Shown here one piece after another: positions 1-17,023 of a DNA stretch of 17,079 nt. How positions within the stretch are numbered: the first letter of the stretch is position 1; the number at the start of each line of letters is the position of its first letter. The stretch is from NCBI GenBank assembly GCA_947581755.1, contig CANPVN010000033.1:1-17079 (forward strand), written 5' to 3'. The translations under genes were made by a program, and so were the position numbers. A model generated the notes under the pieces. It was given only the letters and a program-made list of their open reading frames with translations. It searched no databases and had not been told where the DNA came from. The DNA is from an uncultured Clostridia bacterium (GTDB lineage: Bacteria; Bacillota; Clostridia; Christensenellales; Pumilibacteraceae).

Positions 1-262
1 GACTGAAGGGATTGTTATAATAATCCGACCTTATAAAAAACTAACCGAAAAGTTTATCTTTTCGGTTAAAAAGGAGCAACGGAGCGTAAAAGACTCCTCT
101 TTTGAGTAAAGCGAAAAAGAGAGTCTCAAAGCGACTGTTGCGACGAGGTGACGCTGCACCCACAGTCGCGGTGGCGAGCCGCCACTGCCACAGTTCACGA
201 TTTACTTGATTACTAATTCCAATATTGTCTCCGCGTTCGCGGGATTATGCGAATAATTAATC
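1..262 (+). repeat. Mosaic intergenic repeat element, cut by the window edge. Module P palindrome gggatt..aatcc (3-26), H1 hairpin aaccgaaaag-tttat-cttttcggtt (27-85), H2 (86-146), X (147-243), second P-like palindrome gggattatgcgaataattaatcc (241-262).
   Basis: The same H1+H2 block recurs nearly identically at 9905-10030 (reverse complement) and 16460-16577. The X module recurs 8 more times. Matches were found by reading both strands. Confidence 0.8.
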
Positions 263-318: not shown

Positions 319-394
<76 letters not shown>

Positions 395-4123: not shown

Positions 4124-4152
4124 AAAAAAGGGCGAAAGCTCCGCCTTCGCCC
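4124..4152 (-). terminator. Rho-independent terminator downstream of the glycoside hydrolase gene.
   Basis: On the minus strand the stem GGGCGAA/TTCGCCC (7 bp) with a 9-nt loop is followed by TTTTTT. It lies between the GH stop (4176) and the MMPL start. Confidence 0.55.
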
Positions 4153-4175
4153 TTCCTCTTATCTATCGCGGTTTT

Positions 4176-8366: not shown

Positions 8367-8563
8367 TTCTCTTCACTCCCTGCTTTCAAATTTAGGGTAT
8401 AGATAAGTCTATACATAATTAAGTATAACACAATATAATACGATTTTCCACTGTTTTGAGATAGAATTTGTAAATTTCACAATATTCCCGCCCACCCTTT
8501 CGACGGATTTCCCCCTTCTCCCTCTCTCCCTTCCCCTTACCGTTTTTTCCCCTACCTTATACC

Positions 8564-8740
8564 TTGGCTCCCATTGGCTCAATTTCCCCTCCCGACCTTT
8601 TCTTGGCTCCCCTTGGCTCAATTTCCCCTCCCGACCTTTTCTTGGCTCCCCTTGGCTCAATTTCCCCTCCCTACCTTTTCTTGGCTCCCCTTGGCTCAAT
8701 TTCCCCTCCCTACCTTTTCTTGGCTCCCCTTGGCGGCTTC
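8564..8740. repeat. Tandem array of a 39-bp unit, ttggctccccttggctcaatttcccctccc[g/t]accttttc. Four full copies (starting at 8564, 8603, 8642, 8681) and a fifth degenerate copy follow with no spacers.
   Basis: The exact 39-bp period was counted directly. Copies 1-2 have cccgacc and copies 3-4 have ccctacc. The unit contains ggagccaagg and is derived from family module A (…aaagggagccaagg). Confidence 0.9.
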
Positions 8741-9060
8741 GCCTTTCCTTCCTTCTCTCTTGGCTCCCTTTGGCGGCTTTTGCCGCCAAGGGGAGCCGGC
8801 GCCAATCAATCTAACCTTTTTCTTACCTCGTCAAAAAGTTTAACTTTTTGACGAAAGAGGAGCAGTCGCCTGTAAGAGGCTGCTTTTGACGCTTGTCGGA
8901 AAAAGAGCCTGACAACGGCGTACTGCGACGAGGCTGAGGGGATTAATTATTCGCACAATCCCCCGAACGCGGAAGTCACGCTTGAATTAAAATTCAAGCA
9001 ACTCGCGATTTTGGGTGCAGCGTCACGCTGCCTGAGGGGATTATAATCAATCCGACTTTT
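8741..9060 (-). repeat. Composite mosaic repeat element in reverse orientation: A (8741-8800), H'-type hairpin block with cgtcaaaaag..ctttttgacg (8806-8930), P palindrome (8933-8965), X (8961-9032), P (9033-9058).
   Basis: Its reverse complement aligns module by module with the plus-strand element at 10321-10598, with the modules in a different order. Confidence 0.8.
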
Positions 9061-9854: not shown

Positions 9855-10062
9855 GGTCTATTTATTATAACAATCCCTTCAGTCGTGCATAAGCACGACA
9901 GCCACCCTTACTGCGTCGCAACAGTCGCTTTGAGACTCTCTTTTCGCTATCGCTAAAAGAGGAGTCTTTTATGCTCCGTTGCTCCTTTTTAACCGAAAAG
10001 ATAAACTTTTCGGTTAGTTTTTTTATAAGGTTGATTTATTATAATAGCCCCTTCGGGAAAAG
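9855..10062 (-). repeat. Mosaic element copy in reverse orientation: P remnant plus S hairpin gtcgtgc-ataa-gcacgac (9862-9900), H2 (9905-9975), H1 (9976-10030), P (10031-10062).
   Basis: Its reverse complement is nearly identical to plus-strand positions 20-146 of this window. Confidence 0.85.
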
Positions 10063-10084: not shown

Positions 10085-10310
10085 CCCTGCCGCTGGCCGC
10101 CCTTGGCGTAAGCTAAGGGGGGGGCTGTCACCGAAGGTGACCGGGGGGATTTCGATTATGCAAATCCCCACGAACGCGGAAACCACGCTTGAAGTAAAAA
10201 CCGCCAAATCGCGAACTGTGCCCGCGGCGGCTCGCCGCCTCTTTTAGCGATAGCGAAAAGAGAGTCTCAAAGCGACTGTTGCGACGCAGTAAGGGAAGCT
10301 GTTGCCGCTT
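10085..10310 (-). repeat. Mosaic element segment: A-variant ggccgcccttggcg, hairpin gtcacc-gaag-ggtgac, P palindrome, variant X9 (10166-10239, ending in hairpin ggcggc-tc-gccgcc), and a partial inverted H2 (10239-10305).
   Basis: It is colinear with 13785-13930, where the hairpin is instead ggcaccc-tcc-gggtgcc and X ends in gcagcg-tca-cgctgc. Confidence 0.7.
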
Positions 10311-10320
10311 GTCGGCAACT

Positions 10321-10598
10321 GAAGGGATTGTTTATTTTATAATCCCCTCAGTCTCGTCGCAACACGACATTATGAGTCGCTTTTGCCGACAAGCGTCAAA
10401 AGTCTCCTCTTTAGGTCGGTTGCTCCTCTTTCGCCAAAAAGGTAAACTTTTTGACGAGGTAAGAAAAAGGTTAGATTGATTGGCGACAGCTCCCCTTAGC
10501 GGCAAAAGCCGCCAAAGGGAGCCAAGGCAGCGTGACGCTGCACCCAAAGTCACGAGATAGGTGATTGCTAATTCAAAGTTGATTTCCGCGTTCAAAGG
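10321..10598 (+). repeat. Mosaic element: P (10321-10350), H' block (10352-10483, hairpin cgccaaaaag-gtaaa-ctttttgacg), A (10488-10526), X3 (10527-10598).
   Basis: A near-identical P-H'-A block lies at 16216-16413. Confidence 0.85.
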
Positions 10599-10620: not shown

Positions 10621-10955
10621 ATGCTCTTGACATTAAAAGCGTCGTGGAGGTTCGGAACCCCATCGCATCGTCGCAACTGTCGCTTTTGAGACTCTCTTTT
10701 TCGCTTTGCTCAAAAGAGGAGTCTTTTATGCTCCGTTGCTCCTCTTTCGTCAAAAAGGTAAACTTTTTGACGAGGTAAAAAGGTCGGATTGTTATAAACA
10801 ATCCCTTCAGTCTGCTATTAGCAGACAGCTCCCCTTAGCGGCAAAAGCCGCCAAAGGGAGCCAAGGGGTTGTGCGTACAACAGTCTCCGTTCGCGGAAAC
10901 CCTGTCGGAGTTAAAATTCAAGCAAATCGCGACTATGGGTGCAGCGTCACGCTGC
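10621..10955. repeat. Mosaic element cluster: module T (10621-10670; also found reverse-complemented at 16580-16640), a hybrid H2/H' block (10668-10790), P (10784-10810), S hairpin gtctgc-tatta-gcagac (10809-10825), A (10828-10866), and X4 in reverse (10884-10955), which abuts the cadA-like stop codon.
   Basis: The module order here again differs from the other copies. X4 ends 1 nt from the ATPase stop at 10956. Confidence 0.8.
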
Positions 10956-12923
10956 TTATTTATTATTCACATTCATTGAGTTCAAAATTGCAATCACAGC
11001 CACTCCCACGTCGCCGAATACAGCCATCCACATATTGGTTATGCCGAAAGCCGAGAGGATAAGGATAGCGGCTTTGACGACGAGCGAGAAGATAATATTC
11101 TCGTAGACGACGCGCATGGTTTTTTTGGCTATGCGTTTGGCGATGGGGAGCCCGTTGAGGTCGTCTCGCATGAGAACGACGTCGGATGCTTCGATAGCGG
11201 CGTCGCTGCCCACGCCGCCCATTGCGATACCTATATCGGAGCGCATGAGGACGGGAGCGTCGTTGATGCCGTCACCGACGAAGCAGAGAGCTTGGGAGTT
11301 TTGTTTTTCAGCGAGGAGTTTTTCGACCTCGGCGACTTTATCGGCGGGCATGAGAGAGGCTTTATAGCCGCTCAATCCGAGGGTGCGGGCGACGGAAGAT
11401 GCGATTTTCTCGTTATCGCCCGTCAGCATAAAAGTTTTGCAATTCATATTGCGGAGTTCTCGGATAGCCTGTTGAGATTCGGGTTTTATCTCGTCGGAAA
11501 AGAGCATGGAGCCGACGAATATCCCGTTATGCGCCACATAGACCACGGTGCCCGCGCCTTGAGTCTCGACGAAGTCTACATTATAAGCTCTCATCAATTT
11601 TTCGTTGCCGCAGAGAATGAGTTCATCGCCTTTTTTCGCGGCGATACCCTTGCCCGAAATATCGGAAAGGACATACCCATCCTCGACTTTTCCGTTGTAA
11701 GAAGCGACGATAGACCTTGCTATGGGGTGCGAAGAATCGCGTTCCGCGATGGCGGCAAGCCTCAAGATTTCCTCTTTTTTATCGGCGGGAGAGAGTTGCG
11801 AGAGCGCAAAATTTCCCTTTGTCAGCGTGCCCGTCTTGTCGAAAACGAAGATATTCGCCTTGTTGAGTTTTTCGAGATAGTTCGAACCTTTTACGAGTAT
11901 CCCTTGCCGCGAAGCCGCGCCTATTCCGCAAAAGAAGGACAGCGGTATGGAGATGACAAGCGCGCAGGGGCACGAGACCACCAAAAAACTCAACGCTCTG
12001 TACACCCAAGTCATCCAATCTCCCGTCACGAGCCCGGGAATCAAAGCCAACAACAGCGCTATTCCCATAACCGAAGGCGTGTAATATTTGGCGAAAACCG
12101 TTATAAAGTTTTCCGACTTCGCTTTTTTGTCGGAAGCGTTCTCCACAAGCTCGAGAATTTTGGAAACGGTGCTGTCGTAAAACGCCTTTTCCACGCGTAT
12201 CTCGAGTTGAGAGGTGAGATTGACGCACCCGCTTATGACTTCGTCGCCCGTAAAGACTTCCCGAGGAAGCGACTCTCCCGTCAACGCCTTGGTGTCGAGA
12301 CTCGAATTTCCCTTGATTATAACGCCGTCAAGAGGCACTTTTTCTCCGGGGTTTACGAGAATAGTCTCTCCGACAGAGACCTCGCTCGGATCCACCGTCT
12401 CGATTCCGCTTTCGCGCTTAACAACGGCGCAATCGGGACGAAGTTCCATAAGCGCGGAGATGGATCTACGCGAACTGCCCGTCGCGTATCGCTGAAACCA
12501 CTCGCCCGTCTGATAAAACAACAATACCGCGCACGCCTCGTCGAATCCCTCGAGTTCCATTCCGCTCACCCCTCGATATATCGCAAGCCCGAAAGCCCCG
12601 AAAGTGGCTACGCACATAAGAAAATTCTCATCGAAAATCTGCCCGTGCGCAATGTTTATCGCCGCCTTGCGGAATATGTCGTAACCTATGAATACATATA
12701 TCGCAAAATATAAGCAGAAAGGCAAAAGCCAACAATATCTCCCCGAGAATACTCCCCCCAAGTTTATCGCCTTGTCCGTCGCAAACAACGCGACAAACAA
12801 CACAAACGCAGTTATTATGCGAATGAGAGCGTTCCGCTCCCTTCTGCCGAGTCGTCTCCTCATAGCCTCTTGCTTGCCCCCTATCCCCGAATTATCCTGC
12901 AATCGGGCTCTACCTTGCGACAA
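10956..12923 (-). CDS. cadA: Heavy-metal-translocating P1B-type ATPase of the Cd2+/Zn2+/Pb2+ class (CadA/ZntA-like). As annotated here it lacks the N-terminal HMA domain.
   Basis: TM6 carries the CPC motif (VVSCPCALVISIPLS). It also has the phosphorylation site FDKTGTLT, the hinge GDGINDAP, and an actuator domain TGES. The maximal ORF starts at TTG 12923. The first ATG is at 12863 (MRRRLGRRERN…), preceded by AAGAGG, which would give about 635 aa. Confidence 0.85.
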   Translation of the reverse strand: MSQGRARLQDNSGIGGKQEAMRRRLGRRERNALIRIITAFVLFVALFATDKAINLGGVFSGRYCWLLPFCLYFAIYVFIGYDIFRKAAINIAHGQIFDENFLMCVATFGAFGLAIYRGVSGMELEGFDEACAVLLFYQTGEWFQRYATGSSRRSISALMELRPDCAVVKRESGIETVDPSEVSVGETILVNPGEKVPLDGVIIKGNSSLDTKALTGESLPREVFTGDEVISGCVNLTSQLEIRVEKAFYDSTVSKILELVENASDKKAKSENFITVFAKYYTPSVMGIALLLALIPGLVTGDWMTWVYRALSFLVVSCPCALVISIPLSFFCGIGAASRQGILVKGSNYLEKLNKANIFVFDKTGTLTKGNFALSQLSPADKKEEILRLAAIAERDSSHPIARSIVASYNGKVEDGYVLSDISGKGIAAKKGDELILCGNEKLMRAYNVDFVETQGAGTVVYVAHNGIFVGSMLFSDEIKPESQQAIRELRNMNCKTFMLTGDNEKIASSVARTLGLSGYKASLMPADKVAEVEKLLAEKQNSQALCFVGDGINDAPVLMRSDIGIAMGGVGSDAAIEASDVVLMRDDLNGLPIAKRIAKKTMRVVYENIIFSLVVKAAILILSAFGITNMWMAVFGDVGVAVIAILNSMNVNNK

Positions 12924-13592: not shown

Positions 13593-13653
13593 ATATTTGA
13601 ACGTTCAATCAACTGTTCAATAATATTATATGCTCTCCATTACCCCATGTCAA
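13593..13653 (-). promoter_or_regulatory. Sigma70-like promoter (TTGACA -17- TATAAT) plus a palindromic operator (TTGAACAGTTGATTGAACGTTCAA) for the ArsR-family gene. This is the classic autoregulatory layout.
   Basis: The -35 element is the reverse complement of tgtcaa at 13648-13653. The -10 element is the reverse complement of attata at 13625-13630. The spacer is 17 nt. ttgaacgttcaa (13597-13608) is a perfect 12-bp palindrome lying between the -10 and the RBS. It resembles the TGAACA..TGTTCA operators of SmtB/CadC regulators. Confidence 0.55.
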
Positions 13654-13689: not shown

Positions 13690-14098
13690 ATCCCACCCCG
13701 ACCTTATGCCTTGGTCCCCTTTGCTCCCTTTGGTGGCTTCGCCTTTCCTTCCTTCTCTCTTGGCTCCCTTTGGAGCCTTTTTCTTGGCCGCCCTTGGCGA
13801 CAGCTAAGGGGGGCTGGCACCCTCCGGGTGCCTGAGGGGATTTGTTGTTTGAACAATCCCTTGAACGCGGAAACCACGCCTGAATTAAAAGCAACCTCTG
13901 CCGCGACCATGGGTGCAGCGTCACGCTGCCAAAAGCGATATAAAAGGACGCATTGCGACGCGGATAAGGGGAGCTGTCGCCGTTTTACGGCGACTGAGGG
14001 GATTTGTTATTTGAACAATCCCTTGAACGCGGAAACCACGCCTGAATTAAAAGCAACCTCTGCCGCGACTGTGGCAGTGGCGGCTCGCCACTGCCGCC
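13690..14098 (-). repeat. Mosaic element cluster. It holds degenerate duplicated A modules (13716-13800), hairpin ggcaccc-tcc-gggtgcc (13816-13834), and two direct P-X units 155 bp apart (P 13838-13860 with X5 13858-13929; P 13993-14025 with X6 14020-14098). The two X copies end in alternative terminal hairpins.
   Basis: The two units are identical over about 75 bp (gaggggatttgtt…ctctgccgcgac) and then diverge: …catgggtgcagcgtcacgctgcc versus …tgtggcagtggcggctcgccactgccgcc. Confidence 0.85.
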
Positions 14099-14101
14099 AA
14101 C

Positions 14102-14134
14102 AAAAAAAGGACTCCCTTTCGGAGTCCTTTTTTT
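14102..14134. terminator. Bidirectional Rho-independent terminator that ends the minus-strand surface-protein operon.
   Basis: A perfect 7-bp stem GGACTCC/GGAGTCC with loop CTTTC is flanked by AAAAAAA upstream and TTTTTTT downstream. Confidence 0.65.
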
Positions 14135-14143
14135 GTTGGGTTA

Positions 14144-15924: not shown

Positions 15925-16215
15925 AATCCCTTCAGTCGTGCATAAGCACGACAGATTCCCTTGCTAAGGGAAGCCACGGGTAGTGCGAATCCCCGACTTT
16001 GTTTTTTTAGCCGCCCGTGGTTCCCGCACCCCTTTGACTCCTTTATAATTGGAAATATAGAAATGAAATTCTATTAAAAGTTTTCGTATTAAAATACCTG
16101 GTTCAATGTTACTTTTCATGCTCTGAAAAGTAACCAAAAGGGCAGTGTGACGCTGCACCCATAGTCGCGAGTTGCTTGATTTTTAACTCAAGCATATTTC
16201 CGCGTTCGCGGGACA
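15925..16215 (+). repeat. Repeat cluster: P remnant plus S hairpin gtcgtgc-ataa-gcacgac (15925-15961, identical to 9870-9898), a family-unrelated hairpin-rich segment (15962-16140), and X7 (16141-16212).
   Basis: Direct sequence identity with the other copies. The central segment has its own hairpins (ccacggg…cccgtgg; ttccctt-gcta-agggaa; gttacttttc-atgctct-gaaaagtaac). Confidence 0.7.
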
Positions 16216-16413
16216 GTGCGAATAACAAATCCCCTCAGTCTCGTCGCAACACGACATTATGAGTCGCTTTTGCCGACAAGCGTCAAAAGTCTCCTCTTTA
16301 GGTCGGTTGCTCCTCTTTCGTCAAAAAGGTAAACTTTTTGACGAGGTAAGAAAAAGGTTAGATTGATTGGTACCAGCTCCCCTTAGTGGCAAAGCCACCA
16401 AAGGGAGCCAAGG
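16216..16413 (+). repeat. Mosaic element: P (16207-16248), H' block (16232-16372), and A (16375-16413) in its variant form ttagtggcaaagccaccaaaggg.
   Basis: Near-identical to 10335-10526 except for a compensatory stem change in module A. Confidence 0.85.
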
Positions 16414-16439: not shown

Positions 16440-16640
16440 GGGCCATTATAATAAATCAACCTTATAAAAAAACTAACCGAAAAGTTTATCTTTTCGGTTA
16501 AGAGGAGCAACGGAGCATAAAAGATTCCTCTTTTGAGCGATAGCGAAAAAGAGAGTCTCAAAGCGACAGTTGCGACGATGCGATGGGGTTCCGAACCTCC
16601 ACGACGCTTTTAATGTCAAGGGCATTAATTATATAAATAA
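16440..16640 (+). repeat. Mosaic element: P (16440-16459), H1 (16460-16515), H2 (16516-16577), and T in reverse (16578-16640).
   Basis: H1+H2 match positions 27-146 of this window. T is the reverse complement of 10621-10670. Confidence 0.85.
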
Positions 16641-16854: not shown

Positions 16855-17023
16855 AAGGTTGGATTGTTTATAATCCCCTCAGGCACCCGAAGGGTGCCGG
16901 CTCCCCTTAGCGGCAAAGCCGCCAAAGGGAGCCAAGGAAATACGACTAATTCCTTGAACGCGGAAACCACGCTGTTGTTAAAAAAAACCTCTGCCGCGAC
17001 CATGGGTGCAGCGTCACGCTGCC
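16855..17023. repeat. Mosaic element: P (16857-16880), hairpin gcaccc-gaa-gggtgcc (16881-16897), A (16895-16932), and X8 in reverse (16952-17023).
   Basis: The modules are as elsewhere. X8 equals X5 except for the internal loop (ttgttaaaaaaaacc versus tgaattaaaagcaacc). Confidence 0.85.

Follow-up and report, generated by a model that had tools for sequence, protein, structure and literature searches.

Module X of an uncultured clostridial genome, a hairpin-headed interspersed repeat that probably resembles REP elements

The window analyzed here, the 17,079-nt contig CANPVN010000033.1 of an uncultured Clostridia bacterium of the Pumilibacteraceae (assembly GCA_947581755.1), carries nine copies of a short element, module X, one of which directly follows the gene of a cadA-like P-type ATPase. 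The balance tips, if only just, towards X being a non-autonomous interspersed repeat of the type known from repetitive extragenic palindromic (REP) sequences and bacterial interspersed mosaic elements (BIMEs), composed of a 20-nt head and a lineage-specific body. The best reading is that X is a lineage-specific member of a REP-like superfamily of hairpin-headed repeats with a new tag, and X is read in this way because the published description of the REP superfamilies fits it almost point by point (PMC3733652).

A constant head and a decaying body

The canonical head consists of the hairpin GCAGCGTGACGCTGC and the tag ACCCA, which together form the 20-mer GCAGCGTGACGCTGCACCCA. With up to one mismatch allowed, this 20-mer occurs six times in the window (9012-9031, 10936-10955, 13910-13929 and 17003-17022 on the minus strand, 10527-10546 and 16142-16161 on the plus strand), compared to 0.00 expected occurrences in 200 shuffles, and the 3' box TTTCCGCGTTC occurs eight times compared to 0.99 expected. 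The three variant copies (171-238, plus strand; 10172-10238 and 14025-14091, minus strand) begin with another, fully paired head, which is either GTGGCGAGCCGCCAC or GCGGCGAGCCGCCGC. Counted from the first base of the head through the 3' box, all nine copies have 66-68 nt, and the body is made up of GTCGCG, a decaying central hairpin and GGTTTCCGCGTTC, which together with the head amounts to 67 nt. The natural repeat is often longer: a 100-nt unit (family D1), present in five copies, adds a 3' hairpin of the form GGGGATT...AATCCCC.

An initial annotation of the window had listed nine copies, and all of them are present at the places and in the orientations given there; the lack of a U-tract after X and the position of one copy next to the cadA-like ATPase gene were likewise correctly noted. 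Some details need to be revised. The copy next to the ATPase gene had been called X4, but it is the fifth in the earlier list (10884-10955), and it was thought to start 1 nt after the stop codon, while it actually follows the TAA (10956-10958) with zero gap. This is the only copy that clearly lies within an mRNA. The copy listed as 147-243 is present but turned out to be a composite, with a truncated canonical unit at 147-170 and a complete variant unit at 171-238, and it lies antisense in the trailer of tRNA-Met, between the tRNA-Met gene and a terminator-like module at 41-69. That X is always found next to a palindrome termed P holds only for the heads at 10527, 10955 and 17022, which have such a palindrome within 20 nt, but not for two copies at which it is about 160 nt away, nor for four copies with other neighbours.

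Pairing was counted on an alignment of the nine X copies and one partial relative. The first 20 nt of the six canonical copies are 98% identical, as compared to 62% for the remaining approximately 50 nt. All cells of the head helix, which has a 6-bp stem and a 3-nt loop, are paired in the ten aligned copies; two positions are changed on both sides and therefore compensatory, and one position is a G.U pair. The outer CGCG/CGCG helix is 86% paired and invariant, and no covariation was found for it in the ten-copy alignment. In the central helix, 56% of the cells are paired, and a clear hairpin is kept only in the copies 8965-9031 and 16142-16207. The middle had been described as freely varying and always self-complementary, which does not agree with these data: the middles can be aligned with each other, and to judge from this alignment, the middle of X is one ancestral hairpin (GCTTGAATTTTAATTCAAGC) that decays in most copies. 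The head hairpin is the only well-supported structure in X, and structural conservation is limited to these 15 nt. The head is evidently under much stronger constraint than the body, with its stem being kept by compensatory changes.

The copies 13863-13929 and 14025-14091 have bodies that are 89% identical over the 100-nt D1 unit, while their heads differ. Heads are therefore exchangeable modules.

Other types of small elements do not share this architecture. The two termini of X (GCAGCG... and ...CCGCGTTC) do not form the inverted repeat that is typical of miniature inverted-repeat transposable elements, and no target-site duplication is consistent across the flanks of X copies and heads, where only a purine at position -1 recurs. 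The conserved 5' block folds on itself and not with the 3' block, unlike in integron attC sites, the conserved ends of which (R''/L'' and L'/R') pair around a variable centre and leave extrahelical bases.

The head in other genomes and its register with gene ends

The exact 20-mer was searched in one genome per species and in the viral contigs of IMG/VR. Among the matches listed, it is found in more than 115 genome stretches, with several loci deriving from one and the same genome, and it also occurs in 21 IMG/VR viral contigs; by an arithmetic estimate, about one chance match is expected in 596 Gb. The listed carriers include Oscillospirales (Ruminococcus, Ruminiclostridium and metagenome-assembled genomes (MAGs) of Oscillospiraceae), Christensenellales, Verrucomicrobiota including Akkermansia, and Nitrospinaceae, and the cultured ones among them are Intestinimonas butyriciproducens An565, Ruminococcus sp. 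YE282, Ruminococcaceae bacterium AM07-15 and Bacterium D16-76. As the loci were fetched by the exact 20-mer, the identity across phyla is partly by design. The other modules of the window were also sought in the head-bearing genomes, and none of them is shared; only the head is. A metagenome scan with the X-specific 3' box TTTCCGCGTTCNNGGG gave 120 stretches, all of which lack both an upstream head and the 20-mer, and because of this absence the matches are attributed to chance, the pattern being too short for the collection. Among cultured phage genomes, BLAST gave no matches to X beyond noise at E~8, and literature searches with the 20-mer or parts of it brought up unrelated PCR primers but nothing of relevance.

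In these genomes, the head forms the 5' boundary of repeats of 50-205 nt that differ by genome or lineage. Similarity between copies begins at the first base of the head and extends downstream, whereas upstream similarity is mostly restricted to loci at which a tRNA or an orthologous region precedes the head; a few families within single genomes share a further 30-110 nt on the upstream side. Besides the canonical stem GCAGCG/CGCTGC and its wobble variant GCAGTG/CGCTGC, there are compensated stems of the types GCAACG/CGTTGC, CCAGCG/CGCTGG, GCAAAC/GTTTGC, GCGGCG/CGCCGC, GTGGCG/CGCCAC and GTCCCG/CGGGAC, and such variants may coexist in a single genome, as in locus L100, where 16 heads lie within 8 kb between housekeeping genes. 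In the isolate Ruminococcaceae bacterium AM07-15 (locus L083, 5006-5430, minus strand), five units of about 102 nt are arranged head-to-tail between convergent genes, and each of them begins with an identical or a different head variant. An apparently invariant CCA in the tag is partly an artefact of the search pattern and was dismissed; 57 hairpins that had not been seeded by the pattern give the tag A-Y-C-C-R (ACCCG 14, ATCCA 8 and ACCCA 7 times). At position -1 of the head, 124 of 135 cases (92%) have a purine, and the bases after the tag tend to A-T-Y-C-G-C-G, the start of the next stem.

Two of the repeats that are headed in this way deserve mention in their own right. In Ruminococcus/Clostridiales MAGs (L010, L021, L035, L049, L060, L106, L107, L022), a family of about 105 nt follows the pattern head-ACCCA-A-[ATCNCGCC...GGCGN'GGT], in which TTTGGAA and CAACGGCG are conserved motifs and three pairs of a second stem show compensatory changes; Rfam contains no match for it, and it could constitute a structured element by itself. 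In Nitrospinaceae (L004 6076-6200; L027 1705-1870 and 4137-4300), the head leads a repeat of about 160-190 nt with the end GTTGC(C/A)TCCAA(T/C)CGCCAG(A/G)TTGG(A/G/-)GAAAGA, which by its appearance resembles a clustered regularly interspaced short palindromic repeat (CRISPR).

With respect to genes, heads are mostly intergenic (109 of 144 by rough calls of open reading frames (ORFs), which are crude at the fetched loci), and their neighbours are diverse housekeeping genes. Relative to the upstream gene, there is no overall orientation bias, with 50 heads on the same and 46 on the opposite strand, and 23 heads are antisense between two co-directional genes. The register with gene ends is nevertheless sharp. 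Across about 1 Mb of sequence that contains 255 heads, ORFs of 100 codons or longer have their stop codon at gap 0 in 12 cases and at -1, overlapping the first G of the head, in four cases, as compared to 0-4 cases at each of the other offsets from -10 to +60 except for a peak at -9, and the antisense control gave no case from -10 to +5. The peak at -9 comprises 14 ORFs that end at the TGA of the loop, and it was discounted, as any chance frame that crosses the head in-frame stops there. Among the tRNA and transfer-messenger RNA (tmRNA) genes in the loci, 9 of 28 are followed by a head at gap 0-1 after the CCA, all nine in sense orientation. Heads thus abut stop codons and tRNA ends far above chance.

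Several of these junctions are conserved. The head is kept after tRNA-Thr in two species in which the terminators differ (L089, L108). The junction in the window reads AAATAA|GCAGCGTGACGCTGCACCCATAGTCGCGA, and a homologous locus (L140), the ATPase of which is 74% identical, has AAATAA|GCAGCGAGACGCTGCACCCAATATCGCGAG, while in a relative at 72% an ordinary terminator takes the place of the head. Half of the stop-abutting heads, eight of 16, are found in viral contigs, where the bare 20-mer fills junctions of the type stop|head|3-9 nt|ATG. 

In viral locus L121, two neighbouring phage genes (11857-11886 and 12625-12666) share an end of about 30 nt (...CCTCAACGACAACGAACCTTATTAA), after which the one continues with the head, ATAATTTT and ATG, and the other with TT and ATG. 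This paralogous pair of a filled and an empty junction suggests that the head may have been inserted as a unit of about 26 nt, and indications of a target-site duplication at this junction are only suggestive. The genes of the viral loci L121, L124 and L134 mostly have A/T-rich leaders without Shine-Dalgarno sequences, which points to hosts that do not rely on Shine-Dalgarno-led initiation and that are possibly Verrucomicrobiota-like.

The REP-like reading and its alternatives

REP superfamilies are described as having stems of 6-13 bp, loops of 2-3 nt and an unpaired terminal tag; their subfamilies differ by complementary stem changes and contain G.T pairs, and they occur as singletons, tandems and clusters mixed with other DNA (PMC3733652). 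They are found near the 3' ends of ORFs, the GTAG type often supplying the stop codon, and for the CGTC type no dedicated transposase has been identified (PMC3733652). X shares these characteristics (compare Di Nocera et al. 2013, PMC3733652): it is a short hairpin with a conserved unpaired tag at one end, it has subfamilies with complementary stems and G.T pairs, it is extragenic and multi-copy with singletons, tandems and clusters, and its heads lie close to ORF 3' ends, some of them overlapping the stop codon. The initial annotation had considered that X may act like REP, and this proposal fares well, as X is a tagged extragenic hairpin in many copies and both orientations, with mosaics and tandems, compensatory subfamilies and stop-codon abutment (PMC3733652). 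There are also clear differences. The tag of X is A-Y-C-C-R on the 3' side of the stem (TGG-like on the other strand) instead of GTAG or CGTC, the hosts are Clostridia, Verrucomicrobiota, Nitrospinaceae and phages, whereas REPs are mainly found in Proteobacteria, the head is attached to long lineage-specific bodies, and an abutment to the CCA ends of tRNA or tmRNA is not described for REPs in the literature surveyed. BIMEs alternate in orientation and have defined linkers, whereas tandems of X run head-to-tail (13863-14091; L083) and its mosaics are made of unrelated palindromes.

The closest mechanistic analogy is that to the REPIN-RAYT and IS200/IS605 systems, in which a hairpin with an adjacent short single-stranded motif is likewise the conserved and recognized part, and in which non-coding units need a factor that acts in trans. 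The head would then be the recognition site of a trans-acting enzyme that acts on folded single strands, and by the analogy with REP/RAYT and IS200/IS605 this would most likely be an HUH-type transposase or nuclease that copies or maintains the units. We infer from this analogy that X may be spread or maintained by a single-strand-specific enzyme, and phages could ferry units between phyla. The differences from these systems are that no RAYT or TnpA was found near the heads, that there are no inverted REP doublets, that the hairpin is not subterminal, as in IS200/IS605, but begins at the very first base of the unit, and that a fixed target tetranucleotide is replaced by only a purine at -1. 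Mycobacterial interspersed repetitive units (MIRUs) are 46-101-bp tandem units that contain small ORFs. Like these, the head fills stop-to-start gaps, in its case in viral contigs, but it is a 20-nt hairpin without coding role, save for the in-frame TGA in its loop.

Where a copy is co-transcribed, as at the cadA stop codon, the GC-rich head would form a stable 3' hairpin. From what is known of E. coli REPs, this hairpin could block 3'-5' exonucleases, while transcription would not be terminated. By this analogy, the transcribed head next to cadA most likely acts as a 3' hairpin that abuts the stop codon and serves as exonuclease barrier. From E. coli work there is also the idea that such a head might affect translation termination. 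REPs of E. coli mark structured mRNAs that are targeted by RNase R and PNPase (PMC12320835).

Several observations weigh against a REP-like nature of X. The tag of the 57 unseeded hairpins is neither GTAG nor CGTC. In a REPtron, a RAYT gene is flanked by the repeats; no transposase of the RAYT or IS200 type was found here in about 1 Mb around the heads, which is a weak test, as such genes are single-copy; tblastn with IS608 TnpA and E. coli RAYT (approximate query sequences) against all loci and the window gave no match, and a Pfam census of 143 ORFs next to heads, from the first half scanned, found no enriched family and no transposase among the leading families. As neither an empty site nor an insertion polymorphism was recovered, mobility of the units is inferred only. 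The zero-gap register with stop codons and with the CCA ends of tRNA and tmRNA is sharper than purely selfish DNA would predict. The head after the cadA stop codon persists in a homologue with only 74% protein identity, which suggests either selection on its position or repeated targeted insertion. Finally, a REP system is usually confined to its own lineage, whereas identical heads occur here in several phyla, an identity that in part results from the exact 20-mer search.

What alternatives exist for the REP-like repeat? An alternative that takes the sharp register as its starting point is that the head is a minimal mimic of the tRNA acceptor and serves as a portable punctuation mark, at the 5' foot of which a universal tRNA-end enzyme, with RNase P as candidate, would cut. 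The cut would release the tRNA, tmRNA or mRNA that lies upstream, with its 3' end set precisely, and the RNA that lies downstream would begin with the protective hairpin at its 5' end, while dispersal of the module would be secondary, the head spreading as leading edge of small repeats. We regard this as unlikely, although a number of observations speak for it. A stable hairpin directly after the CCA should, from what is known of tRNA maturation, block 3' trimming unless the foot is cut, and for this reason the abutment to tRNA and tmRNA ends, seen in sense orientation in nine of the 28 genes, is difficult to reconcile with harmless junk. The 16 of 255 heads at stop codons of long ORFs have no antisense equivalent, the viral stop-to-start junctions are filled by the bare 20-mer, and the head is conserved both after tRNA-Thr, despite different terminators, and after cadA at 74% protein identity. 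An identity across phyla and phages would fit recognition by universal machinery. In minihelix substrates of RNase P, N-CCA follows an acceptor-like helix, the base at -1 is usually U, and the enzyme cuts at the 5' foot; the helix of the head, followed by ACC, resembles such a substrate and sits exactly where the upstream RNA must end. The resemblance is incomplete, as the head has a 6-bp stem with a 3-nt loop instead of 7 bp plus a stacked T-arm, as the base at -1 is a purine in 124 of 135 cases while bacterial RNase P prefers U, and as the tag of unseeded copies ends in either A or G. Moreover, about half of the heads are antisense to the nearest upstream gene, including the 23 between co-directional genes, and in the window, the copies 8965-9031, 13863-13929 and 14025-14091 are located past terminators and 171-238 is antisense. 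Tandem arrays and mosaics are left unexplained by RNA cutting.

The three remaining explanations, a terminator, an RNA gene and a duplex binding site, are less likely than punctuation of RNA. That X, alone or with neighbouring palindromes, terminates transcription after cadA and other genes without a U-tract appears improbable. The head does form a stable GC-rich hairpin directly after the cadA stop codon, and for hairpin clusters that lie no more than 80 nt from stop codons, termination without U-tracts has been proposed (PMC8355165); in other lineages (families B and C), the stem that follows the head is a canonical terminator with a T-tract. In the window, however, neither the head nor the 3' box is followed by a T-run when read in the orientation of the element, and three of the nine copies run against the direction of the flanking genes. 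In phage operons, heads occupy gaps between a stop codon and the following ATG, at which termination would be detrimental. The copy 8965-9031 is positioned 142 nt downstream of the rubrerythrin gene, past its hairpin+T7 terminator, and the pair 13863-14091 likewise follows a strong canonical terminator, so that nothing would be left to stop. An intrinsic terminator, as the initial annotation had considered, is thus not what X resembles, also in view of the unit 171-238, which is antisense in a tRNA trailer.

The idea of a small structured RNA, also raised there, has little to recommend it, at least in the form of an independent multi-copy gene of a small RNA (sRNA). The constant length of 66-68 nt with three conserved blocks would be in line with such a gene, as would the folding of some copies, which is better than that of shuffled sequence (z = -2.1 to -3.5), and the second stem with compensatory changes in the related Ruminococcus MAG family. 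Four of the nine copies, however, fold no better than shuffled sequence (z > -1.1), the central helix is only 56% paired, the CGCG helix is without covariation, structural conservation ends with the 15-nt head, and the element is found in both orientations relative to genes without a conserved promoter or terminator that travels with it. There is no Rfam match to the element in its own orientation (window, E<=1; 12 related loci, E<=5), and the sole overlap with an Rfam hit is a sub-threshold chance match on the opposite strand (14052-14097, 21.8 bits as compared to a gathering score of 44).

It is very improbable that the head is a site in duplex DNA for a dimeric protein, such as an operator, an insulator or a nucleoid protein site: the perfect 7-1-7 palindrome GCAGCGT-G-ACGCTGC is strictly identical in five of six canonical copies, but mutually compensated stems coexist in one genome (L100 and the window) with pairing kept while bases change, G.T variants would be A.C on the other strand, the conserved tag is one-sided, and heads lie mainly at gene 3' ends and not at promoters. 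A sigma-54 promoter on the reverse strand, considered by eye, was rejected, as the GG-to-GC spacing does not fit.

Genomic setting and implications

The genes of the window are ordinary. They encode a CvpA-like protein, an MMPL transporter, a glycosidase-like protein, an SPFH protein, rubrerythrin, an ArsR-family regulator followed by the cadA-like P-type ATPase, two secreted proteins, an XRE regulator and tRNA-Met, and no transposase is among the genes of these 17 kb. The nearest named homologues of the ATPase are from "Clostridiales bacterium" and "Candidatus Limihabitans stercoravium", with about 72% identity. Table 1 lists the X copies together with the two genes that they adjoin.

Table 1. 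Copies of module X and adjoining genes in the window
Feature	Position	Strand	Characteristics
X copy next to ATPase	10889..10955	-	Head hairpin 10941-10955 (GCAGCG-TGA-CGCTGC), tag ACCCA 10936-10940, then TAGTCGCG, degenerate middle, 3' box TTTCCGCGAAC 10889-10899
Composite X copy	147..238	+	Truncated canonical head + ACCCA + CAGTCGCG (147-170), then complete variant-headed unit 171-238
Variant unit in composite X	171-238	+	Head GTGGCGAGCCGCCAC 171-185, tag TGCCA, 3' box TCTCCGCGTTC 228-238
X copy	8965..9031	-	Canonical head; central hairpin (GCTTGAATTTTAATTCAAGC) best preserved
X copy	10172..10238	-	Variant head GCGGCGAGCCGCCGC, tag GGGCA
X copy	10527..10593	+	Canonical head; directly 3' of P palindrome 10485-10527; orientation opposite to flanking genes
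X copy	13863..13929	-	Canonical head; 162-nt tandem pair with copy 14025-14091
X copy	14025..14091	-	Head GTGGCGAGCCGCCAC, tag TGCCA; begins 5 nt after bidirectional terminator 14097-14139
X copy	16142..16207	+	Head with one G.U wobble (GCAGTG...CGCTGC)
X copy	16956..17022	-	Canonical head; P palindrome 16895-16937 lies 15-18 nt past 3' box
cadA-like P-type ATPase gene	10956..12923	-	Pfam E1-E2_ATPase and Hydrolase; homologues named cadmium-translocating P-type ATPase
tRNA-Met gene	319-394	-	

The intergenic regions of the window measure 0.8-1.2 kb and are built almost wholly from repeated hairpin modules, X being one of them. Genuine terminators are found at 14097-14139, where a 19-bp hairpin with T-runs is bidirectional, and at 4124-4158. 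A module in terminator form, TTAACCGAAAAG...CTTTTCGGTTAG+T7, is present three times in the window; with the sequence TTAACCGAAAAGATAAACTTTTCGGTTAG followed by T6-7 it is seen at 41-69 (minus strand), 9989-10017 (plus strand) and 16473-16501 (minus strand), as a dispersed mosaic module of the form of an intrinsic terminator. Terminators thus seem to be part of the repeat repertoire in this genome. Perfect promoter-like sites of the type TTGACA-17-TATAAT are located on the minus strand at 13625-13653, upstream of the operon of the arsR/cadC-like regulator and the ATPase, and at 413-441, upstream of tRNA-Met, and these look like real expression signals within the repeat mosaic.

Larger repeated blocks occur as well. 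At 8524-8757, about six 39-bp tandem units (CTTGGCTCCCCTTGGCTCAATTTCCCCTCCCGACCTTTT), pyrimidine-rich on the plus strand, are positioned directly upstream of a P palindrome, and a segment related to this array is found again at 13719-13781. Three copies of a composite block of about 190 nt show 85-97% identity (8759-8974, minus strand; 10340-10526 and 16198-16393, plus strand); two of them join X at one end, and the third joins X at the other end. The junctions of this block fall within GGGATT...AATCC hairpins, which suggests that recombination may occur between hairpin modules.

Such mosaics have practical consequences, as they inflate intergenic regions to 0.8-1.2 kb and break short-read assemblies of the carrier genomes; public short-read contigs that are identical to the window terminate within its repeats. 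If heads were cut at their 5' foot, such cuts would define the 3' ends of tRNA, tmRNA and stop-terminated mRNA in Clostridia, Verrucomicrobiota and phages. If X is a REP-like repeat, the REP-type tagged palindromes would gain a third tag class, and this class would belong to groups for which descriptions of such repeats are scarce, namely gut and rumen Clostridia, Verrucomicrobiota and Nitrospinaceae with their phages. A 20-nt head that is identical across phyla would then have a trans-acting partner. The register of the head with stop codons and with the CCA ends of tRNA and tmRNA links a dispersed repeat to the formation of RNA 3' ends, and this link is testable.

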